The position numbers and the translations under genes were made by a program. From assembly GCA_045536965.1 (NCBI GenBank), contig JAZSON010000012.1:83889-147888 (forward strand): 64,000 nt of DNA, read 5' to 3'. Each line of letters begins with the position of its first letter. Position 1 is the first letter of the stretch. The notes beneath the pieces were generated by a model. It was not told the origin of the DNA and did not search any database. It saw only the letters and a list, made by a program, of their open reading frames with translations. Positions 9,276 to 28,546 of this stretch are shown piece after piece. The stretch comes from Eubacteriales bacterium. Its GTDB lineage: Bacteria; Bacillota; Clostridia; Oscillospirales; SIG627.

Positions 9276-9306
9276 AATAAAATACACCTCAAATCGCTGT
9301 TTTTTT

Positions 9307-9336
9307 ATTATACCATATCACAAAAGATCAATGCAA
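9307..9336 (-). promoter_or_regulatory. sigma-A type promoter for the TIM-barrel triplet
   Basis: On the minus strand: TTGCAT, 18-nt spacer, TGgTATAAT (extended -10). Confidence 0.5.
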
Positions 9337-9363
9337 TACACAATTGACACCGCGTCGATTTTT

Positions 9364-10074
9364 TCAAAGGAAAAAGCGCTTATGTACCTCCTCCTGCCAT
9401 CTGCGGCTTCGATTCAAAAACAAACAAAAAGCCGCCGTCAAAACGCATGCCGCAAAGGGAATCCAGCTCCAGATGGGAACACAGACTGCACCGCTAAACC
9501 CAAGAATCAGCATCTCAACACCCACCGTGTAAACGGCAATCAAAATAAGTGCGTAAGCAATCATACGGAGAAGTGGCTTGAAATACGAAAAGCGGGAGAG
9601 GAAAACAAGCAGGGAAACCGCACCGCCCGCGGCAATGGTAAGCGGTAAGCCCAGGATCAAAAACCATCGCCAATCACCGGGAGTAAAAAACACCGTAACC
9701 ATCAACAAAAACACCGCGACCGCAACCGTATCCACGCAAATATACGCAAGCGGACATTTTTTTGCAACAAGCGGGGGGAACAAGAAAAAGAGAAAAATGA
9801 GCGCCATACCGCCGATGGCAAATATGCTCCACTGCGATCCGTTATACACCAAAATGTTCAGAAGAAGGCAGATCGCAGCGGGAACGAGCAATATAAAGGA
9901 AATGACCGCCGCAAAAAAACGCTTGCCGTCACCGCCGATCCGCTCCATCTCGGTGGAATAGCGGGATTTTTGTTCGCTGGGCGGCTCCTTGGGATTGAAC
10001 ATTTCGACGTTGCAGAGAGGACAAACCGTTTCGGGCGGCGTCAGCTTGACACCGCAATTTACACAATATGCCAT
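9364..10074 (-). CDS. zinc-ribbon membrane protein (polytopic)
   Basis: N-terminal CxxC...CxxC (CVNCGVKLTPPETVCPLC) followed by about 6 hydrophobic helices. It lies 4 nt downstream of the acyltransferase gene. From memory this resembles the DUF6320-type family; not verified. Confidence 0.7.
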   Translation of the reverse strand: MAYCVNCGVKLTPPETVCPLCNVEMFNPKEPPSEQKSRYSTEMERIGGDGKRFFAAVISFILLVPAAICLLLNILVYNGSQWSIFAIGGMALIFLFFLFPPLVAKKCPLAYICVDTVAVAVFLLMVTVFFTPGDWRWFLILGLPLTIAAGGAVSLLVFLSRFSYFKPLLRMIAYALILIAVYTVGVEMLILGFSGAVCVPIWSWIPFAACVLTAAFCLFLNRSRRWQEEVHKRFFL

Positions 10075-10078
10075 CGTT

Positions 10079-11368
10079 TCACCGCGCTTTCTTCAGTTGA
10101 TTGCTTTCCACCGTCACGGGAACGCCAAGCTCCACGAGCGAGGTGAAAAAGTTTCTTTCCGTTTCGCTTTCCTTTAAGGTACGGGTAAAATGGATACGAA
10201 GCTCATCGCCGTGGGTCAGACAGGAGGCGACCACGGGATTTTTTTGGAGCGGTCCAAGCACGAAATCCATATGCACCACCGCCTCCGCCATGGGTGAGGG
10301 CAGGTTGGCAAAGCCGAGATTCGAAAGGCACGAGCTGGTCTGCTTGTCCCCAACGAAATAATACGCGGCTTTCATCAAAATGTTTTTGAGGGCAAGAGGA
10401 CAAATGCGAAGCAGCAAATTATGCTCCATCGCGACGTTGGAGGCGATTTTTGCCCGCAATTTATTTTTGTCCACCTCCAGCAGCATAAACCCGTGCACCG
10501 CACGGCAGATCTCCTCAAGAGAATACTCTCCGTATTTTGCCTGAATGCCGGGGTTGACGTAGGAGGCAAAATTGCGCTTGGTTTTGATGGGAAAGATCTT
10601 CCGCAAATTGACCGGAACGCAGATCTTGACCGGACGAAACCGCTTTTGCGGACGAAGGCGCGCCTGCTGTTTTTGAATGGATTGAATCAGCAGGGCGGTC
10701 AAAAACTCCGTGACCGTTACTCCATATTCTTTTGAAAGGGTTAAAACGCGACTTGCCGACACCGTTCCTGTTGTAATATGCACAAAACCGCTTTCTTCGG
10801 CAGTACCGCGGATATGATATGCATATCTTTCCACCGACGAACGGGTGGGACCGTTATGGAAATCGGCAAAACCGTCGGCAAATTCTTCGGCACGCGGCTC
10901 GTCGTCGCAATTTAATATTTCTTCATCTCGCGGAATGACAAGTCCTTCCCGCAAAGTTAAATATTCCGCAACCAATGTCTTAAAGAAGCAAAGACCACCG
11001 CCGCCATCGGTCAGCGAATGGAAAATTTCCACAGCAATATGCTTGTCAAAATAGCGCACACGGAACAAAAATCGTTTGTTGTCCGAAAATTTCATCCGCA
11101 CACACGGATTGGCCACATCGCTTTGAAGATCGGGAACACCGTCCATGTGCTCAAAATAAAACCAAAACAGCCCTCGGCGAATACGCAACGCCATCCAAGG
11201 AAAACGACGCACGGTTCGCTCCACCGCCTCCTTTAAACAGACGGGGTCTACCTCGCGGTGAAAATCGGCTGTAAAGCGAAACAAAGCCGTCCACCCGCGT
11301 TTTTTTGCGGCCGGATAAATTTTAGCGGCATTATCTAATTTTAACCAAGAAAACTTTTTATTTTCCAT
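10079..11368 (-). CDS. HxxxD-type acyltransferase (condensation / alcohol-acetyltransferase-like fold)
   Basis: 429 aa from the ATG at 11368 (GGAGG, 6 nt). Carries the catalytic-type motif HSLTDGGGG (HxxxDG). The N-terminus, FSWLKLDNAAKIYPA, is typical of this family. Confidence 0.65.
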   Translation of the reverse strand: MENKKFSWLKLDNAAKIYPAAKKRGWTALFRFTADFHREVDPVCLKEAVERTVRRFPWMALRIRRGLFWFYFEHMDGVPDLQSDVANPCVRMKFSDNKRFLFRVRYFDKHIAVEIFHSLTDGGGGLCFFKTLVAEYLTLREGLVIPRDEEILNCDDEPRAEEFADGFADFHNGPTRSSVERYAYHIRGTAEESGFVHITTGTVSASRVLTLSKEYGVTVTEFLTALLIQSIQKQQARLRPQKRFRPVKICVPVNLRKIFPIKTKRNFASYVNPGIQAKYGEYSLEEICRAVHGFMLLEVDKNKLRAKIASNVAMEHNLLLRICPLALKNILMKAAYYFVGDKQTSSCLSNLGFANLPSPMAEAVVHMDFVLGPLQKNPVVASCLTHGDELRIHFTRTLKESETERNFFTSLVELGVPVTVESNQLKKAR

Positions 11369-11496
11369 CTCCAACCTCCGCCCCATATTGTAACACAACT
11401 TTCCATCCATTGCAAGTACCCATCCCCTCGCCCCACTTGACAGAAAAACAAAAAAGTTATACCATACATATAGATTTTTGAAAAAGGAGTCATATT

Positions 11497-13712: not shown

Positions 13713-13740
13713 AATAAATTTTTGCAACACCAAAACATCA

Positions 13741-13774
13741 AAAAGCTGTGCGGAAATTTCCGCACAGCTTTTTT
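13741..13774. terminator. bidirectional intrinsic terminator
   Basis: Palindrome AAAAGCTGTGCGGAAATTTCCGCACAGCTTTT between convergent genes. Confidence 0.8.
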
Positions 13775-13834: not shown

Positions 13835-14947
13835 TTAACCAACGATACCCGAACGCTCGATACCTTGGATGAGGTAACGCTGTGCAAACGAGTAGATCAG
13901 AATGAGCGGCAGAATGATCAACAAACCACAGGTGTTGGTGACAGCCGACTTATAGAGGTTATATGCCGAGAAGGACTGGTCAATACCCAGAGATTTGGGC
14001 ACACTGATAATGTTCGGCAAAAGCCATGTAACATTCTCATTGAAGAACAAATTGGTGTAGAAAGTATCCGTCCACTGCCATGCAAAGGCAAAGAGGAAAA
14101 TCGTCACCATCATCGGTACCGAGAGGGGCAGAATGATGCGGATATAGGTCTTGAACACGCCCGAACCGTCAACATATGCAGCTTCTTCCAATTCATCGGG
14201 TACGCCCTTGAAGAACTGACGCATCATAAAAATGTACAAACCGTTCTTAAAGGCAATGCCACCGAAGGAAAGGATGGCAAGCGGCCAATAGGTATCCAAC
14301 AGGTTGACAAAACCGTCCTGCATCAACTGCGGCAAACCGCTCAAAGCTTCGCTGGTAACAATACCATATTCATTGGCGACCGAGTTCTGTGCGATAGAAC
14401 TGGAGATACCCAAAACATTCATGATGTCGAAGTATCTGAACTTCATAAACATGGACAACTGCAAGGTATCATGCGGTACGATCATGGTAAAAACAACGCA
14501 GAGGAACAAAATCGAGTTGCCGCGGAATTTGAATTTAGCAAAACCGTAACCAACGAACGCACAAACCATCATCTGAATGACGGCACAAAACGTCGAAAGG
14601 GTTAAAGTGTTGATAAAAGCTTCAAAATAGCGGTTTTCATCGATGATTGCACTGTACTGTTCCAGTGTGGGGTACTTGGAGATCAATTTGACCGTAACGT
14701 CGGTAAAGTCCTGAGAACTCATGAACGAACCAGCGATTTTGGTGATAAAGGGATACAAAATAATGTAAGATACACCGATCAAAAAGACCAAGCGGAAGAT
14801 AATAAGAACAACATGCGTAAAGAAATTGAAAGAAAGGAGGCGCATTTTCAAGCGTTGCGCATTGGACAAACGGTCTTGAAAATCAATTTTCTGCATTTTT
14901 CCCTTCAGGGTCTTTTCCTGATCGGACATACTGTCATTGCGATTCAT
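13835..14947 (-). CDS. carbohydrate ABC transporter permease (MalG-like) with enlarged N-terminal/periplasmic region
   Basis: 370 aa and polytopic. It forms a permease pair with 14964..15944. Longer than the usual 280-aa type. Confidence 0.8.
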   Translation of the reverse strand: MNRNDSMSDQEKTLKGKMQKIDFQDRLSNAQRLKMRLLSFNFFTHVVLIIFRLVFLIGVSYIILYPFITKIAGSFMSSQDFTDVTVKLISKYPTLEQYSAIIDENRYFEAFINTLTLSTFCAVIQMMVCAFVGYGFAKFKFRGNSILFLCVVFTMIVPHDTLQLSMFMKFRYFDIMNVLGISSSIAQNSVANEYGIVTSEALSGLPQLMQDGFVNLLDTYWPLAILSFGGIAFKNGLYIFMMRQFFKGVPDELEEAAYVDGSGVFKTYIRIILPLSVPMMVTIFLFAFAWQWTDTFYTNLFFNENVTWLLPNIISVPKSLGIDQSFSAYNLYKSAVTNTCGLLIILPLILIYSFAQRYLIQGIERSGIVG

Positions 14948-14963
14948 ACTGTCTCCTCCCTCC

Positions 14964-15944
14964 TCAATCTTTTCTCTGGTAGAATACGTATGCGGATATC
15001 AGAGCGGAAACGGCCGCAATAATCAGGATGACAATGAGGAAGTACATCCACGACATAGCGGTGGCGATTTCACGAGAATGGTTCTTGGTATCCTCGTAAA
15101 CCGTACCGATAAACGTCATAACTTGGTTGCTCTGCGAGGTAAAGGAGTCGATAACCGTATAAATGGTGTTAACCAGAATCATCGGGCTGATCATCGGGAA
15201 AGTAATCTTCCAGAAGGTTTCCCATGCCGTTGCACCTTCCACGGTACAAGACTCGTAAATCGCAGGAGAGATAGACTGCAAACCCGCAAGGAATATCAGC
15301 ATCTGTACACCGGAACGGTTAACAATGTTGTAAATGTTGTTAACAATCTCAACAACGTATTCAACAAGTTCCGTACCTACCGCCATATTGGCAAACAGTG
15401 ATTGCACGTCGACAACCGAAATAATTTCAGCCGCCGAACTGGATGCCCCGGTATCAATGGTGGATTCCATGGATTCCATCATAGCGTTGGATACGTCGAT
15501 CTGCTCGATGATACCGGTGGAAAGAATAACCGGAATGAAGAAGATTGCACGGAAAACCGCACGACCAACCATCTTCTGGTTCAATACTACCGCCATGAAC
15601 AAAGAGAAGATAACGATTGCAGGAATGTCAATGACCAACTGCTTGATACCCGAGGTAAGGGTTTGAACGAAATCGGGGTTAACAAACAGCGCTTCGCTGT
15701 AGTTATCAAATCCGACAAAGTCCAGATCGAAACCACCCGAGTTTCTCGTTACGATGTAACTGAAACTATACTGGATAGATTCAACAACGATCGGAACATA
15801 GACAAGGAGGAAAACGATCAAAAAGGGAGCAACGAAGACATAGCCCGCTCTCGCCTTGCGGCGATCGAGCGACTTCGGCTTGCTTTTTTTGGTTTTTGAG
15901 ACCGCAACGGTTTTGGAAACTGTGTTTTTTACTTCAGCATTCAT
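14964..15944 (-). CDS. sugar ABC transporter permease (MalF-like)
   Basis: 326 aa from the ATG at 15944 (GAGGTG RBS). Basic N-terminus, then 6 TM helices. Confidence 0.85.
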   Translation of the reverse strand: MNAEVKNTVSKTVAVSKTKKSKPKSLDRRKARAGYVFVAPFLIVFLLVYVPIVVESIQYSFSYIVTRNSGGFDLDFVGFDNYSEALFVNPDFVQTLTSGIKQLVIDIPAIVIFSLFMAVVLNQKMVGRAVFRAIFFIPVILSTGIIEQIDVSNAMMESMESTIDTGASSSAAEIISVVDVQSLFANMAVGTELVEYVVEIVNNIYNIVNRSGVQMLIFLAGLQSISPAIYESCTVEGATAWETFWKITFPMISPMILVNTIYTVIDSFTSQSNQVMTFIGTVYEDTKNHSREIATAMSWMYFLIVILIIAAVSALISAYVFYQRKD

Positions 15945-15968
15945 TTCGTTTAGCACCTCGCAATCTCA

Positions 15969-18900
15969 TTAAGATTTTACAGCGAAATCGTAAGCGGCAA
16001 CCTTGATGCCATCTACTTCGACTTCGGAATCTGTATAGTTGATAATGAAGACAACATCATTATCGTAAGTCACGCGCACCAACTTAGACTGACCGTCAAC
16101 AAATTCATGCTTTACAATGGTTGCTGTTTTTACAAGCTTGAGCGCACTGTTCAAATGCTTGTAAACACCCTCAACCGTATTCAGCTTGCTGGCGTCGCCT
16201 TCTTCGGTCAAACCATCGGTTACACGTCCCATCCAGGTGTTGTAGTCCACCGAGTAATAGGAACTGAACTGTGAGTTTTTGAGTTCTGCCGTATTCTCAT
16301 AAGAAAGCACAAAGTAAATATCCGCGCCGTTCTCAATGGTTTTCAGCAGATTGTAACGATAATCACCCGCAAGGTTGATTGCTTCACCTGCAAAATTGAT
16401 ATACCCATGAAGCACCATGCCTATGAAAGGAATCGACTCGTTAGTTTTTGTGTTGTTGCTGCTGTCAAGCGAGAGATCCAAAATGTGATTGGCATATCCG
16501 AGTGTGTAGGAGTTGCCTTTTTCCACCATAACACTGAGTCCGTTTTCTTTCACAGTCTTCAAGAAACGAACAACAGCTTCTTTGGAATCTTCGCGGTTCA
16601 AGGGAGCATCTTCATTGTGATCCGAGTTGAGGATTGCACCGATGGTACCGACGCTGATGGAGGTAAGATTCATTTCCTTATAGTCTTCAACAATGTTCAG
16701 GAAATATCCTTCTATAACATTGGAGGAAATGAGGATTGGTCCACGGTTGTGATAGGTCTGTGCTGCGGGATCATATGTTTTCAGAAGAGCCGTTCTTCCG
16801 TCAATCGACTGAGCGGCATCATCAGAAGAGAAACCATCAAAGGATCCTTGTTCGAGCACATAGGAGAAGTTCATGTCGGGATATACTTCGATGCCATTGC
16901 TTGCAGCGTACTGTTGCAATGCAGCAAGTCCATCTTCACCGCCCACCTCGGATTCTACATCCAATTTTGCGGGAACCGTACTGACCATACCGCCGTTCAT
17001 CCAGCCTTTATAACGAAGCACCATATTGGAAATGCCGAGTTTCTTAAACTCTTGCAACATGGTTTGCGCCTGTTCAAAGGTGGTCAAAGAGGTCTTGACA
17101 TCAACAGGAACACCAAACACACGTTTGGAAATGTCCATTGCACCGAAAGTCTCGATGTAAAGAACAGCATCTTGGCTCTCGCTGGTCAATTTCTTCAAAA
17201 CACCGGTTGCAATCAGATATTCGCGATAAGCGACAGCCATGCCAACGTAGTTTGCTTGATCACCGCTGAGCATTTTATACACAAAGGTGAAGTTGCCTTT
17301 GTATGCGCGTTTGGTAGAAGCGGTTTCGGTAGAAGCCGATCCCGAAACGGACATACCCGACAAAGGATAGGTATCTGTCTGGGCGGGGAATACCTGCGCA
17401 TAAGCCGTGCAGTATGTATGGCTCTTACCGGCCGAAGTTGACCACAACTTGGAAAGGGCCTCGCCCTCGGTGATCACAGCGATAAAGGCAGCAGAACTGT
17501 TGTTGGTCTGAGATTGCTCTTCAACCTTGGTAATGCCAATGAATTCTTCGGGCACACCCCAAGCAAAATCGGTGTTTTGAAGCGGCTTATCGGCCTCTTC
17601 CTCGCCGTTTGCTGCAGAGACTTCCTCTTTATCGGCATTTTCTTCCTCGGGTTTTGCAATCTTCACAGGAAGAGTTTCAACCCAATAACGAGAAGAAATA
17701 CCGAAAGAATATGCTTTTCCGGCAGTTGCGTCATAGATCATGAATACATTGTCGCTGACCTTTACGCCATCAACCGATTTGAAGGTGGCTGTTTTGTCGG
17801 CTTCGGTGTCAAATGTTTCATCGATAGAGGCGACAAATGCAAACGCGGCATTGAATACCAAAATGCGTTTGCCGAGACCATCGTGAACAAAGTAGTATCC
17901 ACCGGAAGCAGCCACACCCTTTACAGAACCGATTGTATCGGTTACGTCGGCAAGTGTATTGTCAAAGGACTTGGAAAGGCTGCCGACATACTTGAAAGAC
18001 TTGTCAAAAACAACAATTTCCTCTTCGTCGTTCAAGAAAAGATTCGTGGCTGTTTCATAGAAAGCTGTGGGATTTTTCAGATATTTGATCTGGGTCTGGG
18101 TTTGTACAGTGGAATCGGTGCTTTCATCATCCGATGTTGCATTGTCGGCATTATCACCTTCGGCCGTTTCACTACCCGCACCGGAAACAACGGTTTTCAC
18201 TTCATAACTGTGAAGATCAGCAACCGCCACATAGCTGACAGCGCCGGATTGTTCGTTGGTCACGGCTTTGAGAAGCAAAATGCGTCCGTCGCCGCAGTTT
18301 ACTGCATAATCAAAATCAAGCGAGGGATGATCACACTTGACCACCTCGGTCAAAGCGGTATCGAATTTGTAGTAAACATTCTCATTGGTGGTTGTTTGCG
18401 CAACACCAAATACGGGGAATCTCCAATCGTACTGGATCTTAGTATCGATTTTGTAAAACACATTGTCAATACCAAAGAGAGAGGAGGAAATTTTGTTGCC
18501 GTTGATCGAAGTGGCTTCGAAACGGACAAGCGTACCCGAACCGTCGGGAATTAAGGTGTATCCATCCTGAGAATTGTTGATCTCGTAAATGCCTTCGGAA
18601 GTATAGCTCTCGAATGCACTTGTGCCGCCGCCGCAACCCATATAGGGAAGAACGGTGATGTTGTCCAAGAAGTAAACCTCGGTGTCATAGCGAATAGCAT
18701 TCGCGGGAAGACGTACACGCAAACCGCCTTCTTCTACATAATATTCCAAAGAAATTTTGAAAACAGGGGGAGATTCATCCACCGACTCTTCAAATTTGGT
18801 CTCCTCATGGTCACGGAGCATATCATCCAAAGAGTAGTCGGTATACATGCGCAGATAGGTTTCGATTTGAGTCAAATCGTTATCAACGGCATCGCCCGCC

Positions 18901-19604
18901 AAAACATACAAAGATGCTTCGGTGTTTCCCGTCAAAAAGGGGAAATCCTGTTGCCAGTTCGCCCACTGCACTTGGCTGGTCGACTTCTCATAAGAATACT
19001 CGGTATAGAAACTGGTAATCTTATTGAGCGCTTTTTTCATTTCGCGATCGTCGGTATCTTGGAATTTACTGAGAATCAGCTCTTCAAAACGCGACTTTTC
19101 GATCCAACGGGGAACGATTTTACGCTTTGAAGTTTGGCCGATGGTATACTCGACGCGAATACCGCCACGAATCGCTTTGACAGAAATCTGACCAAGCAAC
19201 GCCGCATGGGTATAACTGTTCATGACTGTCTGTTCAGCAGTCGTGATTTTTGTATATGTGACCTTCAACTGAGAAAGAAGGTCTTCTTTTTGAGATTTGG
19301 TTGCCGTGGAAAATGCCACATCGTAGGGGTTTGTAAACAGCACATCCCCCGTCTTGCAATCTTTTAACGCAACTTCACCCGAGAAAGAATCGCCGTACAA
19401 ACGGTAAGACTCTGTCTCATAGAAAAGCGTCATGGTTGCAAGCTTTTCTTCGGCACTTCCATATTTCTGGACCATATAATCAATGGTGGCTTCTTCTTCC
19501 TCTCCAACCTCTTCGGCAAAAGCAGAAAAGAGGGAGGTGGGAAGGAGCAAACTGAATACCATTGAAACAGCCAGCAGGCAAGCCAACAGCTTTTTACATT
19601 TCAT
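15969..19604 (-). CDS. large secreted protein of unknown function, possibly glycan-processing
   Basis: 1211 aa from the ATG at 19604 (GGAGAG RBS), with a signal peptide ...SAFA/EE. The central region has low-complexity acidic linkers. The C-terminal 450 aa alternate strand and helix like a TIM-barrel hydrolase. From memory it resembles DUF5696 proteins that sit in such ABC loci; not verified. Confidence 0.6.
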   Translation of the reverse strand: MKCKKLLACLLAVSMVFSLLLPTSLFSAFAEEVGEEEEATIDYMVQKYGSAEEKLATMTLFYETESYRLYGDSFSGEVALKDCKTGDVLFTNPYDVAFSTATKSQKEDLLSQLKVTYTKITTAEQTVMNSYTHAALLGQISVKAIRGGIRVEYTIGQTSKRKIVPRWIEKSRFEELILSKFQDTDDREMKKALNKITSFYTEYSYEKSTSQVQWANWQQDFPFLTGNTEASLYVLAGDAVDNDLTQIETYLRMYTDYSLDDMLRDHEETKFEESVDESPPVFKISLEYYVEEGGLRVRLPANAIRYDTEVYFLDNITVLPYMGCGGGTSAFESYTSEGIYEINNSQDGYTLIPDGSGTLVRFEATSINGNKISSSLFGIDNVFYKIDTKIQYDWRFPVFGVAQTTTNENVYYKFDTALTEVVKCDHPSLDFDYAVNCGDGRILLLKAVTNEQSGAVSYVAVADLHSYEVKTVVSGAGSETAEGDNADNATSDDESTDSTVQTQTQIKYLKNPTAFYETATNLFLNDEEEIVVFDKSFKYVGSLSKSFDNTLADVTDTIGSVKGVAASGGYYFVHDGLGKRILVFNAAFAFVASIDETFDTEADKTATFKSVDGVKVSDNVFMIYDATAGKAYSFGISSRYWVETLPVKIAKPEEENADKEEVSAANGEEEADKPLQNTDFAWGVPEEFIGITKVEEQSQTNNSSAAFIAVITEGEALSKLWSTSAGKSHTYCTAYAQVFPAQTDTYPLSGMSVSGSASTETASTKRAYKGNFTFVYKMLSGDQANYVGMAVAYREYLIATGVLKKLTSESQDAVLYIETFGAMDISKRVFGVPVDVKTSLTTFEQAQTMLQEFKKLGISNMVLRYKGWMNGGMVSTVPAKLDVESEVGGEDGLAALQQYAASNGIEVYPDMNFSYVLEQGSFDGFSSDDAAQSIDGRTALLKTYDPAAQTYHNRGPILISSNVIEGYFLNIVEDYKEMNLTSISVGTIGAILNSDHNEDAPLNREDSKEAVVRFLKTVKENGLSVMVEKGNSYTLGYANHILDLSLDSSNNTKTNESIPFIGMVLHGYINFAGEAINLAGDYRYNLLKTIENGADIYFVLSYENTAELKNSQFSSYYSVDYNTWMGRVTDGLTEEGDASKLNTVEGVYKHLNSALKLVKTATIVKHEFVDGQSKLVRVTYDNDVVFIINYTDSEVEVDGIKVAAYDFAVKS

Positions 19605-19631
19605 TTGCATACTCTCCAATTCCATTTAGCG

Positions 19632-21785
19632 TTACATTCGTATAGCCAATTCCACGACCAAGTTGTACACAAAAGAGAAGACCTTTGCCAACAACCCGGT
19701 GAACAGAATGCAGATAAACATGATCAGCGCAATACCGAGCAGAGTGCCCAGCGATGTCAAAATGTTTTTAGACATCGAATAATCGTGTGTCACCATCGCG
19801 CCAAAGAAAATCAAAAATCCGCACCAAATATAACCCAACGAGTAAAGCAGGGAAACGATGGCACTTTCGTCCAAGGTAAGGACGTTGGTGATCATAGTCG
19901 TCGGGATGATAAACAAGGGAAGAGGCATCAACGCATAGCCGGTTGCGATTACGATATCGCGGAAACTGCCTTCGCCATCAAACAAAGTGGTCAAACACCA
20001 GTTCGCAACTGCCCACAGCAAGAAGGGCACGAGAACAGCCAAAACCGTTCCGATGATGCTGGCGCCTTTGTTTTCGGGATCGAAAATGTACGCGTTACCA
20101 ATGGATTTGTAGACCATCGCAATCAGTGTCAAACCGATGATGGTGAAAGCACCGCAAAGATTACCGCGTTTTTCGTGCTTCAAATCCCAAAATCCGTCAA
20201 ACGGATGCATCATAACATGGAATGCATAGAAGGTTGCTTCTTTCCAGGTGCGGTGTTCCTTGGAAACCTGTCCTGCCAAGTTAACCTTCGCGGCATACTT
20301 AAACAGTTTGGAAAGAAGAACGAAAAATACAATCAGTACGATCGGCACTAAAATGATATAAGATTCAAGCCAAACTTTTCGTACATTGCGGAAAGCTTCG
20401 GAATAATCATCGATCGCATGTGCGAACTTGTACTGTTCCATAGCTTCTTCATACTTACCTGCACGGTACAAGCTGTCGCCGATACCAACGTATGCCTGGT
20501 CAAAGTTTGAGTTGCTTTGCAAAATTTTGCGCCAATAAGTAACTGCTTCGCTGTAATTACGGTCACGCTGGTTTTGAAGAGCTGCCGCGATCAAATCGCC
20601 ATACTCTGTGCGCTTATAAACCGTAAAGGCTTCAACCGTTTTGTCATAAACCAACAAATCGGTTTGATTGTAGACCATGGTAATGATGGTATCAATACCA
20701 CCGAGCAATGCAGCCTGCGTTTTATCACCGAAAACATACAGCAAATTGCCTTGCTCATCATAAGTATAAATTTTACCTCTGAGTTGGTCAGCTATACTCC
20801 AAGTACCATTCTGTCCGAGCGCAACATCCACGATGGTGGAGGCTTCGACGATAGCATCTCCTTCAACATCGGTGAACAAAACATTGACTTCACCGTGCGG
20901 CGCGAAGAAGCCGGTTCTCAGCATAACGTCCTCGCCCTCGGGATTGAGTTTTTTTACAGGAGCATAGGTGCTGGACTTGTCCTCAATCGACGATTGTTGA
21001 TCCAGTTTGTCGATCGTAGAGGTGGTTACATATACGAAACCGCTGTCGTCAATCGAAATGTTGTTGTACTCGGTCGGTACATAACTGACCGAACGACGAC
21101 GCTGTTCGGCTGTTTGGAAGTTACGCCAGAAAATATCCCACAAACTGGGAGCGGTCTTCTGTGCACCCAAGAAACCGTTGAATTTACCATCGGAGTTCAT
21201 CGAAATAACACCGTAGTGGGTTGTCGAAGAAATAACGTAAATACGGCCGGCATTATCAACAACCAGAGCAACCGGTTTGTAAACGTGACCTTCGGGGAAA
21301 ACATCGCTTTCGGGTTCGTCTACAATACGACGGAATGTGTACTCACCAAGCTCATTGGGATAACGACTGAAAATGGCGATACGGTTATTATCGGTATCGG
21401 CAACAAAAATTTCCGTTTCATTGACGAAAATACCGGAAGGGGTATCGAGATTATCAGGAACACCTTGATCGTTTACGAAGGCATAAATCACTCCGGCGAG
21501 CGAATAGTCGGGGTTGAGAATAACAATACGGTCATTCCCCGAATCGGCAAGGTAAAGCATGCCTTCATCGTCTACCACCATATCCTTCACGTTGTTTAAG
21601 GGTGTTTCAAGATTCATCACCGTCGAATTGACGATCTCATAAGGAACATAGGCATGGGGAGAATCGACCATATTACCATCAATATCATAGGTATAGGTCG
21701 CATAGGGAACTGCGGCACCAACAGCCGGCGCAATCACAACCGCCAAAAGAAGAACACAGCTGAGGGCAATCCAAAATCGCTTCAT
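19632..21785 (-). CDS. NHL-repeat beta-propeller / TPR / Yip1-like polytopic membrane fusion protein
   Basis: Signal peptide, then NHL-like blades (LYLADSGNDRIVIL, IFVADTDNNRIAIF, IYVISS), then a TPR-like segment (YSEAVTYWRKIL...AGKYEEAMEQYKFA), then about 5 C-terminal TM helices. GGAGG RBS. Confidence 0.7.
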   Translation of the reverse strand: MKRFWIALSCVLLLAVVIAPAVGAAVPYATYTYDIDGNMVDSPHAYVPYEIVNSTVMNLETPLNNVKDMVVDDEGMLYLADSGNDRIVILNPDYSLAGVIYAFVNDQGVPDNLDTPSGIFVNETEIFVADTDNNRIAIFSRYPNELGEYTFRRIVDEPESDVFPEGHVYKPVALVVDNAGRIYVISSTTHYGVISMNSDGKFNGFLGAQKTAPSLWDIFWRNFQTAEQRRRSVSYVPTEYNNISIDDSGFVYVTTSTIDKLDQQSSIEDKSSTYAPVKKLNPEGEDVMLRTGFFAPHGEVNVLFTDVEGDAIVEASTIVDVALGQNGTWSIADQLRGKIYTYDEQGNLLYVFGDKTQAALLGGIDTIITMVYNQTDLLVYDKTVEAFTVYKRTEYGDLIAAALQNQRDRNYSEAVTYWRKILQSNSNFDQAYVGIGDSLYRAGKYEEAMEQYKFAHAIDDYSEAFRNVRKVWLESYIILVPIVLIVFFVLLSKLFKYAAKVNLAGQVSKEHRTWKEATFYAFHVMMHPFDGFWDLKHEKRGNLCGAFTIIGLTLIAMVYKSIGNAYIFDPENKGASIIGTVLAVLVPFLLWAVANWCLTTLFDGEGSFRDIVIATGYALMPLPLFIIPTTMITNVLTLDESAIVSLLYSLGYIWCGFLIFFGAMVTHDYSMSKNILTSLGTLLGIALIMFICILFTGLLAKVFSFVYNLVVELAIRM

Positions 21786-21802
21786 TATGTATTCCTCCTT
21801 CT

Positions 21803-22675
21803 TTAGTCTTTCATACCGGATGTGGACATGGTTTCGATAACATTACTTTGCGAAATAACGAAAACGGCAATCGGGACGATCATCATAATAACCATCGCCG
21901 CACCCGAAACGCCTGCACGCGAAATACTACCGGTTACAAGCTGGTTAATCGCATAGTTGAATGTTTTAAGTTGTTCACTGTAAATATAGGTCGAAGTTCC
22001 GCTATTCCACAAATCTTTGAATGCAAAAATGATCAAGGTCAACCAAGCGGGCTTAACCATCGGCATAGCAATGGTCCAGAGGATGCGCATTTCTGATGCA
22101 CCATCCAAGCGAGCAGATTCCAAAACGGTGTCGGGAACACTGGTTTCCATGAACTGCTTCATCAGGTAAAGACCCATTGTGGTACAGAATGCGGGAACGA
22201 TGATGGCAAGATATGTATCCATCCAACCCAAAGCAGAGATAATAATGAAGTTGGTCAACGCGGTAACCGTGGAATGGAACATCAAAGAGTAAACTATGAT
22301 GTTGAACAAGAAGACGCGTCCGGGGAACTTGATCTTCGCCAAAGCATAAGCAGCAAGCGAAGAAAGCATAACGTTTCCGAATGTACCCACGATTGAAATA
22401 AACGCAGTATTAAAAATGTAACGGGAAAAAGGAACCCACGAGGTGCCCATCAAACGGAACAACTGCGTAAAGTTACGGAACGTGGGGTTGCGCACGAAAA
22501 AGCGCGGGGGGAACATCCAAAGTTCATCCAAGGGTTTAAGAGACTGACAAATAGTGTAAACCATCGGAAGGAACATGAATGCACCGAAAATAAACAAGAT
22601 TGTATTGATGCCGATATCACCGCCGAGGGAGCGGTTCATAGCATGGTTAGATTTTCTGATTCGCAACTTTGCCAT
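21803..22675 (-). CDS. carbohydrate ABC transporter permease (MalG-like)
   Basis: 290 aa from the ATG at 22675, which directly abuts the upstream stop at 22677. Polytopic. Confidence 0.85.
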   Translation of the reverse strand: MAKLRIRKSNHAMNRSLGGDIGINTILFIFGAFMFLPMVYTICQSLKPLDELWMFPPRFFVRNPTFRNFTQLFRLMGTSWVPFSRYIFNTAFISIVGTFGNVMLSSLAAYALAKIKFPGRVFLFNIIVYSLMFHSTVTALTNFIIISALGWMDTYLAIIVPAFCTTMGLYLMKQFMETSVPDTVLESARLDGASEMRILWTIAMPMVKPAWLTLIIFAFKDLWNSGTSTYIYSEQLKTFNYAINQLVTGSISRAGVSGAAMVIMMIVPIAVFVISQSNVIETMSTSGMKD

Positions 22676-22676
22676 A

Positions 22677-23630
22677 TTATTTACCCACCTTCGCCAGTAG
22701 TTTTCGAACAATCACGTTCGCGCCGATCATCATAAAGAACAAGATGGTGGCAATTGCGGAAGCGTAACCCATCTCAAAACGTTCACCGCCGTAGTCTTCA
22801 AGATGGTGCATGATCGTATGTGCGCAGTAATCGGGGCTGGGGAAACCAACCATAGCTGTGATAACCGCACCGAAACCGAACGATCCGGTAATAGCCAAAA
22901 TAGCACCGAACATCATCTGCGGTTTCATGTAGGGGAGGGTAACATACCAAAGTTCCTGCCAACGGTTTTTAACACCGTCCACGGCAGCAGCTTCATACAA
23001 ACTTCTGTCAACCGTCTGGAAACCTGCAATAAAGGACAAGAAGGATGTACCCAAACTGGTCCACAATGCAACAGCAATAACGATCGGCATGATGTAACTG
23101 GTATCGGTCAAGAATTGGATCGGGTTGGTGATCATGTTTAACTTCAACAAAATACTGTTGATGTAACCATATTGGTCACCCGAGAACAAAACGGTCCAAA
23201 TCATGTAAACGTTACCCGAAATACTCGGCGCATAGAAAATCAATGTAACAACCGCACGAACCTTCGGGGTCAATTCGTTGATAAACCATGCAAACATCAA
23301 AGACATCAAATAGGACACAGGTCCGGTAATCGATGCAAAAACCAGCGTATTCTTTACGGCAAGAATGAAAATATCATCCTCCAAAAGAAGACGGACATAG
23401 TTTTTCAGACCGATATATACCGGCCATTCCAACATATTAAACGTAGTGAAACTCAAAATCATGGACAAAGCAACGGGAATTACGGTGAAAGTAAAGAAAA
23501 GCAGGAAGAAGGGGCCTACCATCAAATAGGCAACCCAGTTTTTCTTCATTTCACTCCATGTATATTGAGCTTTGTTCATTCTTTTCTTTGCTACCGGTTT
23601 TTTTGCAACAGCAGCTGCTTTTTCCGACAT
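22677..23630 (-). CDS. sugar ABC transporter permease (MalF-like)
   Basis: 317 aa from the ATG at 23630 (GAGGAGAGG RBS). Basic N-terminus, 6 TM helices. Confidence 0.85.
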   Translation of the reverse strand: MSEKAAAVAKKPVAKKRMNKAQYTWSEMKKNWVAYLMVGPFFLLFFTFTVIPVALSMILSFTTFNMLEWPVYIGLKNYVRLLLEDDIFILAVKNTLVFASITGPVSYLMSLMFAWFINELTPKVRAVVTLIFYAPSISGNVYMIWTVLFSGDQYGYINSILLKLNMITNPIQFLTDTSYIMPIVIAVALWTSLGTSFLSFIAGFQTVDRSLYEAAAVDGVKNRWQELWYVTLPYMKPQMMFGAILAITGSFGFGAVITAMVGFPSPDYCAHTIMHHLEDYGGERFEMGYASAIATILFFMMIGANVIVRKLLAKVGK

Positions 23631-23742
23631 AAGAAATCCTCTCCTCAACGGTTATTCCGGGTGTTTTCCCGGCACTCAAGCGACATTTTGCTATTTTTCC
23701 CCGCCCACTCTTACGAGCGGGGAAAAATAGTCCGAAATTCTG

Positions 23743-26700
23743 TTATTCCGTATCTTGCGATTGATTGGCGTCCTCTTCAACATCCGACTCTTTATCAGAA
23801 GGAAGCCCGGTTCCGCCATTTTTATAATCCTCTACGTCCTGCTTGACGTTATACGGCAGATATTCAAGATCCTCAATGTCAGCAAACATTTCCATCGTCG
23901 GCAAATCAAATTCTTCGCGTTTTCTGGAAAGTTCATTGTTGATTGCATCGATATAGCTTAATAATGCATCGGTCGGAACCTCATTATCATTATAAGCAGC
24001 CAAGAATGCAAAGTTGGTATAACGTGCCAAAATATATCCACCGGGAAGTTCGGGGGTAGCAGCAAGATGGTTGAACTGCTCGCGGAGACTGTTATAGTCG
24101 GCGGCAGGCCACGGCTGACGGCCCAAAGCTTCAAGGTTTGCTGTATCGTGACGGCCCGAAGCGCCGAGCAATGCAAGCAATTCATTACCGTAACGTGCCT
24201 GCGCATCGGTATCGGTCCACCACTTCATAAATGTCCAAGCAGCTTCGACTCTATCATGATCGGCAGCGCCCTTCATCATCATAACGCCTGTAACCGACGA
24301 TTGAATATCGCGGTTCAGTTCGCCTGTTTCTTCGTTTTTGGTACCGGGAACCAAAGTGAATTCCCAAAGTCCGCGAATTTCAGGAGCGAAAATGGTCAAC
24401 TGACCGTAAGCGCTGTAAGATGTCAAAGCAAGGGGCATTTCACCGGTCTTGAAACGGTTTGCAAAGTTGAAGGTAACAGGGAAACCGTACATGGTAAACA
24501 TTTCGCACATCCGCTTCCAGCTTGCCAAAGCAACGTTGCTGTCAAGGTTAATGCGCATACCGGATGTCAAGTGAATGTCATCAGCGGTAAAGCCATTGTC
24601 TTCCAATGCTTTTACAACCTCATCACTCAACTTCACTTCACCTTTGTACAATTCCTCGTCCTGCTGATACATAAACAAGGTGTAACTGTGTGCAAAGCCC
24701 ATATCCAAATAGTTATTTTCGAACACGGGGATAATGTCATACAAATCTTCCCATGTTTCGGGAACCTCTAGGTTGAGTTCGGCAAATACGTCTCTGCGGT
24801 AGAAAATCATGTTGAACAACTGGGTTTCAGGCAGAGCGTAAGTTTCATTGTACAAGGAAAGGGGCACCATGGCTGTTGCATGGAAACGATCACAAACCTC
24901 GTCAAATTCCGACAACTTTGTAACTGGGAGAACTGCGCTTCGAATGGCATAGTTGATGATGGTACCCGAAGCAATGCTCAAAGCAACATCGGGGCCGATA
25001 CCTGCCAAAGTCGAAGGCAACAAAGCGCCCGCTGCAACCAATTCCAGATTAACAGCAATTTGGTTCTGGGTGGTGAAATCATCTTGAATCATGCTGCGGA
25101 TGATTTGCGCCTGATCACGTCCGGTAGAAATCCAAACAGTGATATTTTCGTACTGTTCGCCACCTTCAAGTTCTTTTGCACCCAAATCGTTGTAGTTGGT
25201 AAAGAAGCTTGCGATAAAGGACTTGATTTCATGGACAAAGCTATCAAAGAATCCGCCCTCAGCTACGGGAAGCTCGTTGCCTACGGGAACAAATTCAATA
25301 TAGTCAATTTCCAAAGGCTGGTTGGAGGTATCCGAAATCCATGTACCCAAAGTGGAGTTATAGTCTTTCAAAGTCGAGAAGTTGGCCGCAATAACGTCCT
25401 CATTCTTATACATACGTTCGAGCAAGTACTGTACTTTACTCAAAGTAACCGAGTGAGAACCGGCAGCACCGGTGATTTGTTCCAACTTATCGTACACAGC
25501 CTGCAATGTGTCGGCCTGCTTCTTCATGTTGATCAACACATCGGGAAGCTGAGATGCAAATTTGTAGTCGCGGTATTCATCGGGATCGGGACCGGTCAAC
25601 ATCAATATCTTCATATAGATCTTGTTAACTTCGGCCACAACATTGTCAACGGTACGGAGAATTTCTGCCATATCACCAAGCACAACACGCAATTCAACGG
25701 TGTGTTTGCCTGCTGTCATGTAGAACATGAAATCGGTGGTACCATCGTTTAAGGGATCCGTGCGGAAAGAATCGCTGTAATTAAAACGCAAGGAAGATGC
25801 TTCGGCAAAGGGTACTTCACCGTCTATGCGAAGTTCACGAGAAGTGTAAACACCCTCATAAATGTTTTGCTTGGAACGGGGAACAATGCTATACCAACCA
25901 TCCTTGGGAATGTCAACCTCCCATTGGATCCAGTCACCGACGCTAACCCACTTTTCACCGCCGATGGTATTGAGCATCTGCAAAGAGGAGTCTTGAGGAT
26001 CGGTAGCAGAAGAAGAACGATCGCTCAAAGCGTAAAGGATTTGACCGGAAGTCGCGATAGGCTTCTCAGCGTCGATGCGGATATTCTCAACGCCTTGCAG
26101 TCTGTCTTTGACACTCACCTGGTAAGTTTTTTCAATTTCCTTCAAATATTCTTTGTAGGAAGCGGGAGTCTCAACATATTCAATGACCAACGAACCGATA
26201 ACAACAGGCTCGGTCACTTCTTGGAAAGTGATGGTGTGCTCACCTTCGGTCAGGTAGAACTTAAAGGGATCCAAGTAATAACCCGTAGAGTCAATGGCCA
26301 CGGTGGTCATCCACTCGGGTGTTTCGTATTTGGTGGGACGGAGTTCGTTGCCGTATTTATCGGTATCAAATCCACGGCTGTCCTCGGTGTTATAGATGTA
26401 GTCATCCTGCCATTTGGCTTGCATAGCGACATAGCGGGATTCTTTGAACGGATAAGAACCGTCAATCAGAATGGCACGTTCGATCGTGGAAGACTTACCG
26501 ATTTCTTCGCCGTAAGCCACACTGTAACCTTGGGTATCGATAACCTGTTCGCCCTTGTCGTTGAGATAAATATCTTTGCCGTCTTTTGTTTTCGAAACGG
26601 CCAAACGGGGGGTAGCTACGGTTTTGCCATCGGCAGAGATGAGCTTCTGGTTGCCAAAATCGTCGACAACGGCATTGCCGTCTTTATCGATGTAGGGTTT

Positions 26701-27975
26701 GAAACCGGTAACATCCTGCGTCGAACCGGACTTACCGTCTGTTTCATATATAATATTGCCCTTGCTGTCCTCGACGGGAAGAACGTAGGGAGTGAGTCTT
26801 TCAACCTCATGGAAAAGAATGCTGTTGCCTTGGCTGTCGTTTTTGCCGGTTACGGGACGGTAACCCGTTGTATCAGCAGTTTCGTTGCCGTCAACATCCA
26901 AATATACTTTCTTGCCGTCAGCATCGATCTTATGTACGAGCGAGGGAACCGCTACAACATTGACCTGTTTTTTCAGCTTCTTAAAACCATATTCATCCAC
27001 GGCGGTTTGGTTGCCTACTTTGTATTCGGCAAAACCGGTGGTGTCGGCAATACGCTCGCCGCTATCGGCATAGCGATAAATATAAGCGCCGGCGCTATCG
27101 GTTTGATGCACGGGTTTGGCAGTCAATTTAGCACCCGCGGCATTCACCAAGACAGGCACGCCAAAAAGCGTCTCGCCGGAATCACTGTATCCCGAGAGAT
27201 CGGTAACCTGTTTGCCGCTCTTATTTAAATAAATGATGTTGCCATTGCCATCACGCGCAGCGGTCAAAGAAGCCACAGCATAAATGTCTTCTTTGACCGT
27301 CAAAATGGTATAGTCGGCATAATCGAAGTGAACGGTTTGCAAAACATCGTCGATCTTATAAGGAATATAGGAAGAAACATCGTCAATGACGGCGCCGGTT
27401 TCCTTATTTTTATAAATAACGTTTCCGCTTGCATCCTTTTCTTCGATCACAAAAGGCGTCAAGAACAATTCGGAATCACGGTAATAAATTTTGTTGCCGA
27501 GCGCATCGACCAAAACATACGAGTTTCCGTCTTTAACATAGCGACCTTCGATGTAAAGGCCATTGGCAGCCGTCTTATACTTGGTGTGGATTGGATAGTA
27601 CTGAATAACGACATTGTAATATCCGGCATTTTTAATGGAGAACTTCCAGGTAACTTTGCCGCTGTCGGGCACAAGCAAACCGGTATCACCATCCACCGTA
27701 TATTGCTCAATTTTTGCAGTTGTATCGGAGGGAAGATAGTTTTCGCCCTCCAAGCGCACCGAATCGGTCCCGGGTTTTACACCGAGAGCATCATATTTCG
27801 CCAGATAGTCAGCATACATAGTAGCTGCCATCAAGTCTTTCATTTCCTGAAGGCGCTGCTGTGCAATAGATGACTCCTCATCGGACTCCGCCAGCGCAAT
27901 CATACCCACAGACGTTATGACCGTTACCAAAGCCAATAACGCCGAAAGCAAGCGCCGCAGAAAAGTGTGTTTCAT
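23743..27975 (-). CDS. giant extracellular solute-binding protein: signal peptide, carbohydrate-binding-like modules, internal repeats and a C-terminal family-1-type SBP domain
   Basis: 1410 aa from the ATG at 27975 (perfect GGAGG RBS). The signal ends ALA/ESD with no lipobox Cys. The C-terminal 500 aa look like a sugar SBP (ITVWISTGRDQAQ..., PGTKNEETG..., acidic tail). The N-terminal 900 aa are extra. Confidence 0.75.
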   Translation of the reverse strand: MKHTFLRRLLSALLALVTVITSVGMIALAESDEESSIAQQRLQEMKDLMAATMYADYLAKYDALGVKPGTDSVRLEGENYLPSDTTAKIEQYTVDGDTGLLVPDSGKVTWKFSIKNAGYYNVVIQYYPIHTKYKTAANGLYIEGRYVKDGNSYVLVDALGNKIYYRDSELFLTPFVIEEKDASGNVIYKNKETGAVIDDVSSYIPYKIDDVLQTVHFDYADYTILTVKEDIYAVASLTAARDGNGNIIYLNKSGKQVTDLSGYSDSGETLFGVPVLVNAAGAKLTAKPVHQTDSAGAYIYRYADSGERIADTTGFAEYKVGNQTAVDEYGFKKLKKQVNVVAVPSLVHKIDADGKKVYLDVDGNETADTTGYRPVTGKNDSQGNSILFHEVERLTPYVLPVEDSKGNIIYETDGKSGSTQDVTGFKPYIDKDGNAVVDDFGNQKLISADGKTVATPRLAVSKTKDGKDIYLNDKGEQVIDTQGYSVAYGEEIGKSSTIERAILIDGSYPFKESRYVAMQAKWQDDYIYNTEDSRGFDTDKYGNELRPTKYETPEWMTTVAIDSTGYYLDPFKFYLTEGEHTITFQEVTEPVVIGSLVIEYVETPASYKEYLKEIEKTYQVSVKDRLQGVENIRIDAEKPIATSGQILYALSDRSSSATDPQDSSLQMLNTIGGEKWVSVGDWIQWEVDIPKDGWYSIVPRSKQNIYEGVYTSRELRIDGEVPFAEASSLRFNYSDSFRTDPLNDGTTDFMFYMTAGKHTVELRVVLGDMAEILRTVDNVVAEVNKIYMKILMLTGPDPDEYRDYKFASQLPDVLINMKKQADTLQAVYDKLEQITGAAGSHSVTLSKVQYLLERMYKNEDVIAANFSTLKDYNSTLGTWISDTSNQPLEIDYIEFVPVGNELPVAEGGFFDSFVHEIKSFIASFFTNYNDLGAKELEGGEQYENITVWISTGRDQAQIIRSMIQDDFTTQNQIAVNLELVAAGALLPSTLAGIGPDVALSIASGTIINYAIRSAVLPVTKLSEFDEVCDRFHATAMVPLSLYNETYALPETQLFNMIFYRRDVFAELNLEVPETWEDLYDIIPVFENNYLDMGFAHSYTLFMYQQDEELYKGEVKLSDEVVKALEDNGFTADDIHLTSGMRINLDSNVALASWKRMCEMFTMYGFPVTFNFANRFKTGEMPLALTSYSAYGQLTIFAPEIRGLWEFTLVPGTKNEETGELNRDIQSSVTGVMMMKGAADHDRVEAAWTFMKWWTDTDAQARYGNELLALLGASGRHDTANLEALGRQPWPAADYNSLREQFNHLAATPELPGGYILARYTNFAFLAAYNDNEVPTDALLSYIDAINNELSRKREEFDLPTMEMFADIEDLEYLPYNVKQDVEDYKNGGTGLPSDKESDVEEDANQSQDTE

Positions 27976-28096
27976 GCCAATCCTCCTAAGAATCAACTGT
28001 TCGCCCATTCTTTTGCGGGCCACAGTCAAAACATATGTATAAATAAGTACTTTTGCCGCAAAGGGCGGCTAAAACGCCCATTGTCAAGCATATTAT

Positions 28097-28126
28097 ATAC
28101 TACCACAAGCCCCGCTTTCTTGTCAA
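28097..28126 (-). promoter_or_regulatory. sigma-A type promoter of the seven-gene ABC locus
   Basis: On the minus strand: TTGACA (28126-28121), 18-nt spacer, TAGTAT (28102-28097). This leaves a leader of about 120 nt before the ATG at 27975. Confidence 0.5.
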
Positions 28127-28454
28127 GACCGAGAATGATATGTTTTTTCGGGGATTTTTGCTTTTTCCCGCAACCGACCGCCTCTTTTGCCGCATTCCCC
28201 CTCGTGCAGATAGGCAAAATACAATTTTCGTTATTTTGCACAATTACATTATGAATTGTTAATCTTCAAAAATTCACAATCCGTTAAAATTTTAAAAAAC
28301 CATGATAATATAGCCTATTTTTACATCATCAATGGTGGATGTTTTTTCAATCATTACATATTATTGCATATTTTATATTTTTATTTTTATGATATGAAAC
28401 TTTATAATTTCTTCCAAAAACGCCCTTTTTTCACCCTCATTTCCTCCCCATACA

Positions 28455-28493
28455 CAAAACAAGAATTGTGCAATTAGCACAATTCTTGTTTTG
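28455..28493 (-). terminator. intrinsic terminator downstream of mnmA
   Basis: 17-bp perfect inverted repeat CAAAACAAGAATTGTGC-aatta-GCACAATTCTTGTTTTG with T-rich flanks on both strands. Confidence 0.8.
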
Positions 28494-28546
28494 TTTTTTC
28501 TACAAATTGAACAATCTTTGTTCGTCGGCGTTCGACAATGGTCTTT

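Follow-up and report, generated by a model that had tools for sequence, protein, structure and literature searches.

A conserved seven-gene cluster with two CUT1-type permease pairs, a Yip1-family membrane protein and a DUF5696 protein in a Eubacteriales bacterium and its relatives

Introduction

The locus described here lies on the minus strand of a 64,000-nucleotide (nt) stretch of contig JAZSON010000012.1 from a Eubacteriales bacterium (assembly GCA_045536965.1), which is referred to as the window and to which all coordinates apply. It consists of seven genes, which encode a solute-binding protein (SBP), two pairs of permeases (P1/P2 and P3/P4), a membrane protein that combines NHL, TPR and Yip1 domains (the Yip1 protein), and a protein of the DUF5696 family. 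Among the described systems, the CUT1 importers (TC 3.A.1.1) of the Firmicutes are the closest, as they too have an SBP of the SBP_bac_1/8 type and paired permeases resembling MalF/MalG or UgpA/UgpE, in which EAA loops are present, and may have no ATPase gene within the locus. Orphan ATPases are shared in these bacteria, such as MsmK in streptococci and MsmX in B. subtilis. The module differs from the CUT1 importers in its two permease pairs per SBP, in an SBP of approximately three times the normal size, which has N-terminal domains resembling carbohydrate-binding modules (CBM) and no lipobox, and in the presence of Yip1/NHL/TPR and GH129-like proteins as fixed members of the operon. As far as is known, the fixed second permease pair and these two additional proteins set the module apart from the characterised CUT1 loci.

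Glycan binding, processing and transport are also co-encoded at the cell surface in the Sus-like utilisomes of the Bacteroidetes and in the Gram-positive polysaccharide-utilisation loci (gpPULs), the latter being usually defined by the presence of a degradative carbohydrate-active enzyme (CAZyme), a transporter and a transcriptional regulator. The module has no TonB-dependent transporter, SusD, regulator or further CAZymes, and its composition is invariant, whereas that of the utilisomes and gpPULs is variable.

One other relevant system is YknWXYZ of Bacillus, in which a polytopic membrane protein of the Yip1 family, YknW, is encoded together with an ABC transporter and has been shown to modulate the assembly of YknXYZ (PMC4887032). 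However, YknYZ is a MacB-type exporter that works with the membrane fusion protein YknX, whereas the partners in the module are type I importer permeases, and the protein of the module, unlike YknW, combines its Yip1 domain with a TPR region and a large NHL propeller outside the cell. No MacB/FtsX, HlyD or ABC_tran domains were found in the operon by Pfam.

Finally, the DUF5696 protein may be compared with the structures 5wzn and 5opq, which belong to NagBb (B. bifidum), an alpha-N-acetylgalactosaminidase of GH129, and to the GH129-like 3,6-anhydro-D-galactosidase DagB (Zobellia), respectively, and with the GH101 endo-alpha-GalNAcases. In all of these proteins a (beta/alpha)8 barrel stands between an N-terminal beta-sandwich and a C-terminal beta domain, with detectable profile homology, and the Asp of an FDG/FDA motif, a His before strand 7 and a GD(D)Y...NG(G)A motif are apparently shared as well (hhalign with manual extension). 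The DUF5696 protein differs in its low identity (approximately 10-13%), in the canonical nucleophile and acid/base positions, which are not evidently conserved, and in being extracellular and encoded in a transporter operon, with what may be a large insertion hot-spot before the barrel.

On balance, and with moderate confidence, the locus is interpreted here as encoding a single integrated cell-surface apparatus for the capture, processing and import of complex carbohydrates, with the Yip1-family protein as its scaffold.

Conservation of the seven-gene order

The seven genes are closely spaced and run head to tail between positions 13835 and 27975 (ORF calling), in the order SBP-P1-P2-Yip1-DUF5696-P3-P4, and the single-operon layout proposed in the first-pass annotation was reproduced almost to the base. 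The proteins of the window were mapped onto the open reading frames of 84 related loci, which came from searches that list only the best matches. This order is far beyond chance, and it was found, on one strand, in all 84 of these loci wherever the contig reaches. Each permease in these loci best matches its positional orthologue, and the intergenic gaps are short, with medians of 1-34 nt. The flanks differ from locus to locus (MnmA, VanY, ABC-F, RNase H and others), and loci identified through homologues of the Yip1 protein at 52-58% identity repeat all seven genes in an identical order within unrelated flanks.

In a search with the DUF5696 profile that considered one genome per species, at least 517 species-representative genomes were found to encode a DUF5696 relative. 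Almost all of these are metagenome-assembled genomes (MAGs) of uncultured Clostridia, Oscillospiraceae or Eubacteriales from the rumen, gut or faeces, with a few from groundwater or digesters. The recurrence of DUF5696, Yip1 and double permease pairs in Firmicutes genomes, which had initially been put forward, is thus borne out by the related loci and by these genomes. The accompanying claim that such loci have no experimental description also stands, given that a literature search returned no paper that mentions DUF5696 or PF18952, and none that links Yip1 to transporters of this kind.

Covariation of the seven proteins

The evolutionary rates of the proteins were compared through pairwise distance matrices from the 64 loci that have all seven, using partial correlations and Mantel permutation. 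The distances of SBP, P1 and P2 form one block (r 0.78-0.87) and those of Yip1, DUF5696, P3 and P4 form a second (r 0.71-0.84), with cross-block values of 0.48-0.70, except for the SBP-Yip1 pair (0.82). The partial correlations were positive for SBP-P2 (0.59), SBP-P1 (0.37), Yip1-DUF5696 (0.46) and DUF5696-P4 (0.35), and negative for SBP-P3 (-0.17) and DUF5696-P1 (-0.25).

This block structure persists once the common distance signal has been taken out, and also under Mantel permutation, and it does not simply track adjacency, as the SBP-Yip1 correlation exceeds that of P2-Yip1, and the DUF5696-P4 correlation exceeds that of DUF5696-P3. These patterns are suggestive, and the cluster appears to be made up of two co-evolving sub-modules, {SBP, P1, P2} and {Yip1, DUF5696, P3, P4}.

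The four permeases and the missing ATPase

The domains assigned by the first-pass annotation were correct for all seven proteins when checked against Pfam. BPD_transp_1 was found in all four permeases, for which the nearest NCBIfam models (UgpA/UgpE, MalF/MalG and GlcT/GlcU) are those of the CUT1 type. The EAA loops, with EAA-x-x-x-G motifs, could be read from the translations of the MalF/UgpA-like P1 (LYEAAAVDG...), the MalG/UgpE-like P2 (VLESARLDG...), the MalF-like P3 (IYESCTVEG...) and the enlarged MalG-like P4 (LEEAAYVDG...). Judged from these motifs, all four permeases carry the loops that dock an ABC ATPase, and the CUT1 combination of a MalF-like and a MalG-like permease with EAA loops is present twice, as P1/P2 and as P3/P4. 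As originally proposed, two complete pairs accompany one SBP, and no separate SBP for the second pair was seen in any of the loci.

P1 and P3 are 23% identical and P2 and P4 are 24% identical, which rules out a recent tandem duplication, and the pairs are paralogues that diverged long ago. An insertion on the extracytoplasmic side of P3, at approximately residues 150-215, is present in 78 of 78 homologues (identity 0.41-0.77), and an additional loop in P4 (residues 181-205) is lineage-specific.

No ABC ATPase or regulator was found in the operon by Pfam, in agreement with the first-pass annotation, and neither is conserved in the flanks of 82 of the related loci (L002 and L004 being left out as duplicates), so the regulator of the usual gpPUL definition is lacking in the operon and in the conserved flanks alike. 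The 64-kb window also has no MalK/MsmK-type ATPase to provide the nucleotide-binding component of a CUT1 importer. The only ABC ATPase in the window (3878-4807) adjoins an ABC-2 permease, and this pairing with an exporter-type permease rules it out as the ATPase of the operon. The absence of an ATPase gene had been presented as unusual, but it is ordinary, given that a single orphan ATPase, such as MsmK, commonly serves several of the carbohydrate ABC transporters of the Firmicutes, including those of the CUT1 type (PMC4519317).

The solute-binding protein

The SBP is defined by a Pfam SBP_bac_8 match at residues 983-1280 (55.7 bits against a cut-off of 27, E 8.7e-15), whose core corresponds to positions 24190-25083, and its homologues also match SBP_bac_1. 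From the N-terminus, the protein has a signal or anchor of the AxA type, two regions that resemble CBM6/35 beta-sandwiches (on weak evidence), a helical region and a C-terminal CUT1-type domain, which gives weak matches to SBPs for sugars and chitooligosaccharides (7ehp, E 5e-5). The N-terminal half is conserved, with recurrent sub-threshold matches to CBM_35 and Golvesin_C in several homologues, and NCBIfam has no named family for the protein.

The leader (MKHTFLRRLLSALLALVTVITSVGMIALA/ESDEE) contains no cysteine, and the lipobox of a Gram-positive lipoprotein SBP is therefore missing, as first noted from the sequence. A loose lipobox pattern was found in only nine of 70 SBP homologues, most of which have a leader of the AxA type.

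On the minus strand at 26500-27582 (approximately residues 150-510), the first N-terminal domain is interrupted by an in-frame insertion of approximately 360 residues, composed of repeats of about 45-50 residues with the motif D-x-x-G-N-x-I-Y...G...V-x-D-x-x-G-Y. The occupancy of residues 150-510 in the alignment is close to zero in 67 homologues, which are 984-1260 residues long, and the large size (1389-1413 residues) is common only to the nearest relative, a UBA MAG (GCA_002397605.1), at 80% identity. The sizes of the "giant" SBP and of the DUF5696 protein, which had been considered notable, are thus due to lineage-specific insertions (approximately 360 and 270 residues, respectively) and are not traits of the families.

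The Yip1 protein

The 717-residue protein has matches in Pfam to Yip1 (PF04893; 61.9 bits against a cut-off of 28.6, E 9e-17, profile positions 1-172 of 173) and NHL (31.9 bits against a cut-off of 20), in addition to TPR. An AF2 model, with a mean predicted local distance difference test (pLDDT) of 84.5, places a signal peptide first, followed by a six-bladed NHL propeller (residues 30-392), TPR-like helices (394-475), one transmembrane helix, amphipathic helices, and a Yip1 domain (543-716) of five long transmembrane helices. The fold of the propeller matches those of TRIM71, TRIM2 and Pizza6, with E-values down to 2.8e-14 and TM-scores of 0.73-0.78 (E 2.8e-14 and 0.77 for TRIM71/TRIM2).

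At least 1620 homologues of this fusion protein were found, all of them full-length, and the mean column identity over 73 homologues is 61%, against 29% in the DUF5696 alignment. The invariant residues of the membrane part are H527-P-F-D530-G-x-W-D534-x-x-H537-E538-x-R540, N595-W, E605, D610, E640, H667-D668 and K673-N674. Such invariant charged residues suggest that the protein may be more than a passive scaffold, and could form, for example, an ion- or ligand-binding site.

The DUF5696 protein

The assignment to DUF5696 (PF18952) is supported by a Pfam match of 489.8 bits (cut-off 25.6, E 1.6e-146), and the family contains 6072 clusters at 50% identity, with no named family in NCBIfam. The AF2 model, based on a 104-sequence alignment (pLDDT 79.5), begins with a signal or anchor and a beta-sandwich, followed by a (beta/alpha)8 barrel and, at the C-terminus, a beta domain. 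In Foldseek, the best match of this model was DagB (5opq, E 1.7e-21, TM-score 0.65-0.67 over the whole target), followed by the GH129 enzyme NagBb (5wzn, approximately 1e-17), and then by GH101 (approximately 1e-10) and GH13 enzymes.

The family profile matched 5wzn at E 2.2e-4, and hhalign gave a probability of 93.8% (E 1.7e-7) against a NagBb-like sequence, although this reference was stitched together from two low-coverage, frameshifted contigs, which makes the mapping of catalytic residues weak. A phmmer search of the protein against the PDB sequences returned no match, and only the profile and fold searches gave relatives. By fold and profile, then, the DUF5696 protein is a distant relative of the GH129/GH101 alpha-glycosidases.

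Database fragments of NagBb-like proteins carry precomputed PF18952 matches. In the ENA metagenome contigs L085 and L086, the NagBb-like GH129 genes are split by frameshifts into three to four fragments, with matches to both PF18952 and PF12905 (GH101), so the Pfam DUF5696 model already overlaps bona fide GH129 enzymes.

The polar residues that are invariant in the DUF5696 family (D324 within PDGSG, N840, D893, R974, N1001, H1036, N1047, D1051 and E1061) point to a conserved pocket for sugar binding or catalysis. On the minus strand at 17535-18356 (approximately residues 387-660 of the mature protein), an insertion of about 270 residues, which is partly acidic, of low complexity and modelled with a pLDDT below 50, lies between the N-terminal domain and the barrel in this lineage only. 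Other members of the family range from approximately 900 to more than 2500 residues, some with two DUF5696 stretches, and the junction of the N-terminal domain with the barrel may be an insertion hot-spot.

A proposed mechanism and its alternatives

In the integrated apparatus proposed here, the SBP would capture a glycan through its CBM-like N-terminal domains and pass the oligosaccharide to P1/P2, while the DUF5696 protein would trim, hold or present the glycan and work with the second translocon, P3/P4. The Yip1/NHL/TPR protein would be the scaffold that joins both translocons and the extracellular proteins without a lipid anchor, and it may retain the non-lipidated extracellular proteins, a role similar to that of YknW in the assembly of YknXYZ (PMC4887032). 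A shared ATPase of the MsmK/MsmX type, encoded elsewhere, would power both translocons. The substrate might be, as a weak guess based on the resemblance to GH129/GH101, an alpha-linked glycan that is galacto-configured or contains amino sugars.

A number of points weigh against this apparatus. The catalytic residues of NagBb are Asp435 and Glu478, and DagB retains only the Asp (PMC5698469). In the hhalign alignment, whose local confidence is low around these positions, D435 falls on V955 (mature numbering), in a column of V/L/F, and the His-Asp before strand 7 on the invariant His1036-Gly1037, while E478 falls near the invariant G1000-N1001, with the column two residues earlier (998) being D47/E28/N14. 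With the nucleophile aligned to V955 and His-Asp to His-Gly, the DUF5696 protein may not be a conventional retaining hydrolase. The CBM-like assignment of the SBP rests on sub-threshold matches, the ATPase needed to power the translocons was not found within the 64 kb of the genome at hand, and the covariation could have arisen through block-wise recombination rather than functional coupling. The locus also has no cytoplasmic sugar-processing enzyme or regulator and lies among housekeeping genes, which is atypical of nutrient foraging, and no experimental description of any member of the module was found in the literature.

The alternative that survives best, although it is considered doubtful, is that the DUF5696 protein is a GH129-like pseudo-glycosidase which has become the receptor of the second translocon, so that two units, SBP-P1-P2 and DUF5696-P3-P4, would be bridged by the Yip1 protein. 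The layout of a receptor gene followed by permease genes would then occur twice in the locus, and the conserved columns aligned with the GH129 nucleophile and with the aspartate of the His-Asp pair are non-acidic. The distances of DUF5696 covary with those of P4, P3 and Yip1, and not with those of P1/P2, while those of the SBP covary with P1 and P2, and not with P3/P4. The insertion found throughout the P3 family would also, by inference, be located at the position of the MalF loop known as P2, which in MalF contacts the maltose-binding protein.

On the other hand, to our knowledge, no type I ABC importer uses a receptor without the SBP fold, and the alignment on which the loss of catalysis depends is of low confidence precisely around the catalytic positions. 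The many invariant acidic and polar residues of the family (D324, D893, D1051 and E1061) are, moreover, compatible with catalysis. The catalytic residues of GH129-like enzymes are in any case plastic, with DagB keeping one of the two NagBb residues (PMC5698469).

A second alternative, which is regarded as rather improbable, is that the module recycles or remodels a surface glycopolymer of the cell itself, such as a wall polysaccharide, a capsule or an S-layer glycan, as a housekeeping function and not for foraging. The lack of a regulator and of cytoplasmic catabolic enzymes is consistent with this function, as is the housekeeping nature of the genes around the locus, with nifS-nifU-mnmA in one flank and, among others, those for RNase PH and ribosomal proteins in the opposite flank. 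The same is true of its rigid composition over hundreds of species, unlike that of the variable polysaccharide-utilisation loci, and of its occurrence in host-associated and groundwater or digester MAGs alike. However, the extracellular parts evolve fastest, with mean identities of 39% for DUF5696 and 44% for the SBP where P1-P3 reach 60-69%, and large insertions are tolerated in them, features which fit an adaptation to varied external ligands, and no wall-synthesis genes are linked to the module in the loci.

A more ambitious version of the integrated apparatus would be a Gram-positive counterpart of the utilisomes, that is, a stable super-complex in the membrane in which the Yip1 scaffold and its NHL propeller couple two type I translocons to two unanchored proteins, with DUF5696 delivering to P3/P4. 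This version is given little credence at present, but, if true, DUF5696 would be the first receptor without the SBP fold to be described for type I ABC importers, and bacterial Yip1 proteins would gain their first defined role in nutrient uptake.

Finally, the notion that two ABC transporters and two further genes, all unrelated to one another, are merely neighbours, for which the low identity between the permease pairs, the strong hairpin after the SBP gene and weak internal promoter-like matches might be cited, is strongly disfavoured, given that the internal matches are no commoner than in shuffled sequences, that the second permease pair lacks an SBP of its own, and that the genes keep their order, strand and close spacing without exception in the 84 loci, which come from different species, have different flanks and share no conserved ATPase or regulator, a combination that effectively excludes it.

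The module is invariant in 84 loci, and relatives of its marker protein occur in at least 517 species-representative genomes of Clostridia, almost all uncultured, from the gut, the rumen and the environment. No characterised member was found in the literature. Working it out would give a function to DUF5696 and its 6072 clusters and to the bacterial Yip1-domain proteins, and would explain how Gram-positive cells keep non-lipidated binding proteins or enzymes at the membrane. It would also test whether two ABC translocons form a single glycan-uptake machine, and improve the functional annotation of a considerable part of the Oscillospiraceae-like MAGs encountered in microbiome work.

Gene starts and spacing

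All the genes of the module are on the minus strand. The open reading frame of the SBP extends over 23743-28029, with a likely ATG at 27975 preceded by AGGAGG, which gives a gene of 23743-27975 and a protein of 1410 residues. That of P1 (22677-23648) probably begins at the ATG at 23630, preceded by AGGAGAGG, which gives 22677-23630 and 317 residues, and that of P2 (21803-22711) at the ATG at 22675, which gives 21803-22675 and 290 residues. The starts chosen for these three genes agree with the sizes of the homologues and with the figures of the first-pass annotation. They are followed by the genes of the NHL/TPR/Yip1 protein (19632-21785, 717 residues), the DUF5696 protein (15969-19625, 1213-1218 residues), P3 (14964-15956, 326-330 residues) and P4 (13835-14947, 370 residues). 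The DUF5696 protein has 1218 residues when read from the first ATG, and the database copy begins five codons further on, with 1213 residues.

With the refined starts, the gaps from SBP to P4 are, in order, 112, 1, 17, 6-27, 12-24 and 16 nt. The first of these and most of the other distances agree with the original description, in which no other gap exceeded 22 nt, and this limit may fail for Yip1-DUF5696 (6-27 nt) and DUF5696-P3 (12-24 nt), depending on the start.

The GC skew of the operon (14000-28000) is about zero (-0.03 to +0.01), with a GC content of 44-47%, against a skew of -0.08 to -0.23 and a GC content of 45-54% in most of the window outside it. This difference could reflect the composition of genes for membrane or secreted proteins, or a different history.

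Promoter, hairpins and flanks

A sigma-70-like site (TTGACA-18 nt-TAGTAT, with a TG upstream of the -10 and 10 of 12 matches) was found at 28097-28126 on the minus strand, approximately 120 nt upstream of the SBP ATG, and a terminator-like hairpin at 13740-13773, on both strands, with a 15-bp stem, seven GC pairs, an A-run and a T-run. The latter separates P4 from a convergent radical-SAM gene. The promoter and the bidirectional terminator are thus where they had been placed in the first-pass annotation, as pattern matches to the consensus only, and promoter-like matches across the region are no commoner than in shuffled sequence. The operon needs a promoter of its own, because the terminator hairpin of mnmA (28454-28494) stands upstream of it. 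One flank encodes RNase PH and a B12/radical-SAM protein, and the opposite flank MnmA and a NifS-like aminotransferase. These are housekeeping genes with terminators of their own.

In the gap between the SBP and P1 genes (111-112 nt), a stem-loop at 23691-23730 on the minus strand, with a perfect 17-bp stem and no U-tail, lies directly after the SBP stop codon. The gap folds at -41.1 kcal/mol (z = -3.8), with none of 200 shuffles being as stable, and the stem-loop may serve to stabilise the mRNA or as an attenuator, which would favour the expression of the SBP. In most of the homologous loci this gap is much shorter, with a median of about 34 nt, and the hairpin may be specific to the lineage.

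An Rfam scan of the operon region found no riboswitch or leader, and no cre-like site was found in the promoter region of the operon. In the whole window, the cre-like pattern TGWNANCGNTNWCA occurs 16 times with up to one mismatch, against 6.9 expected, a number that none of 100 shuffles reached, and one perfect match lies within the SBP gene, at 26700-26713.

Other features of the window

Elsewhere in the window, three tandem genes for xylose-isomerase-like TIM-barrel proteins (AP_endonuc_2) are located on the minus strand at 6475-11410, followed by the genes for a DUF6320 protein and for a 443-residue protein without a Pfam match. A fourth AP_endonuc_2 gene (47940-48770) adjoins an AraC regulator and a GFO/IDH/MocA oxidoreductase, and an 878-residue fusion of an AP_endonuc_2 TIM barrel with an AMP-binding (adenylate-forming) enzyme, which is an unusual combination, is encoded on the minus strand at 50052-52688. 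Finally, at 39339-43403, DUF1015 and ParA genes lie between two ParB-like genes, followed by serS, an arrangement that suggests an origin-proximal position in the chromosome.

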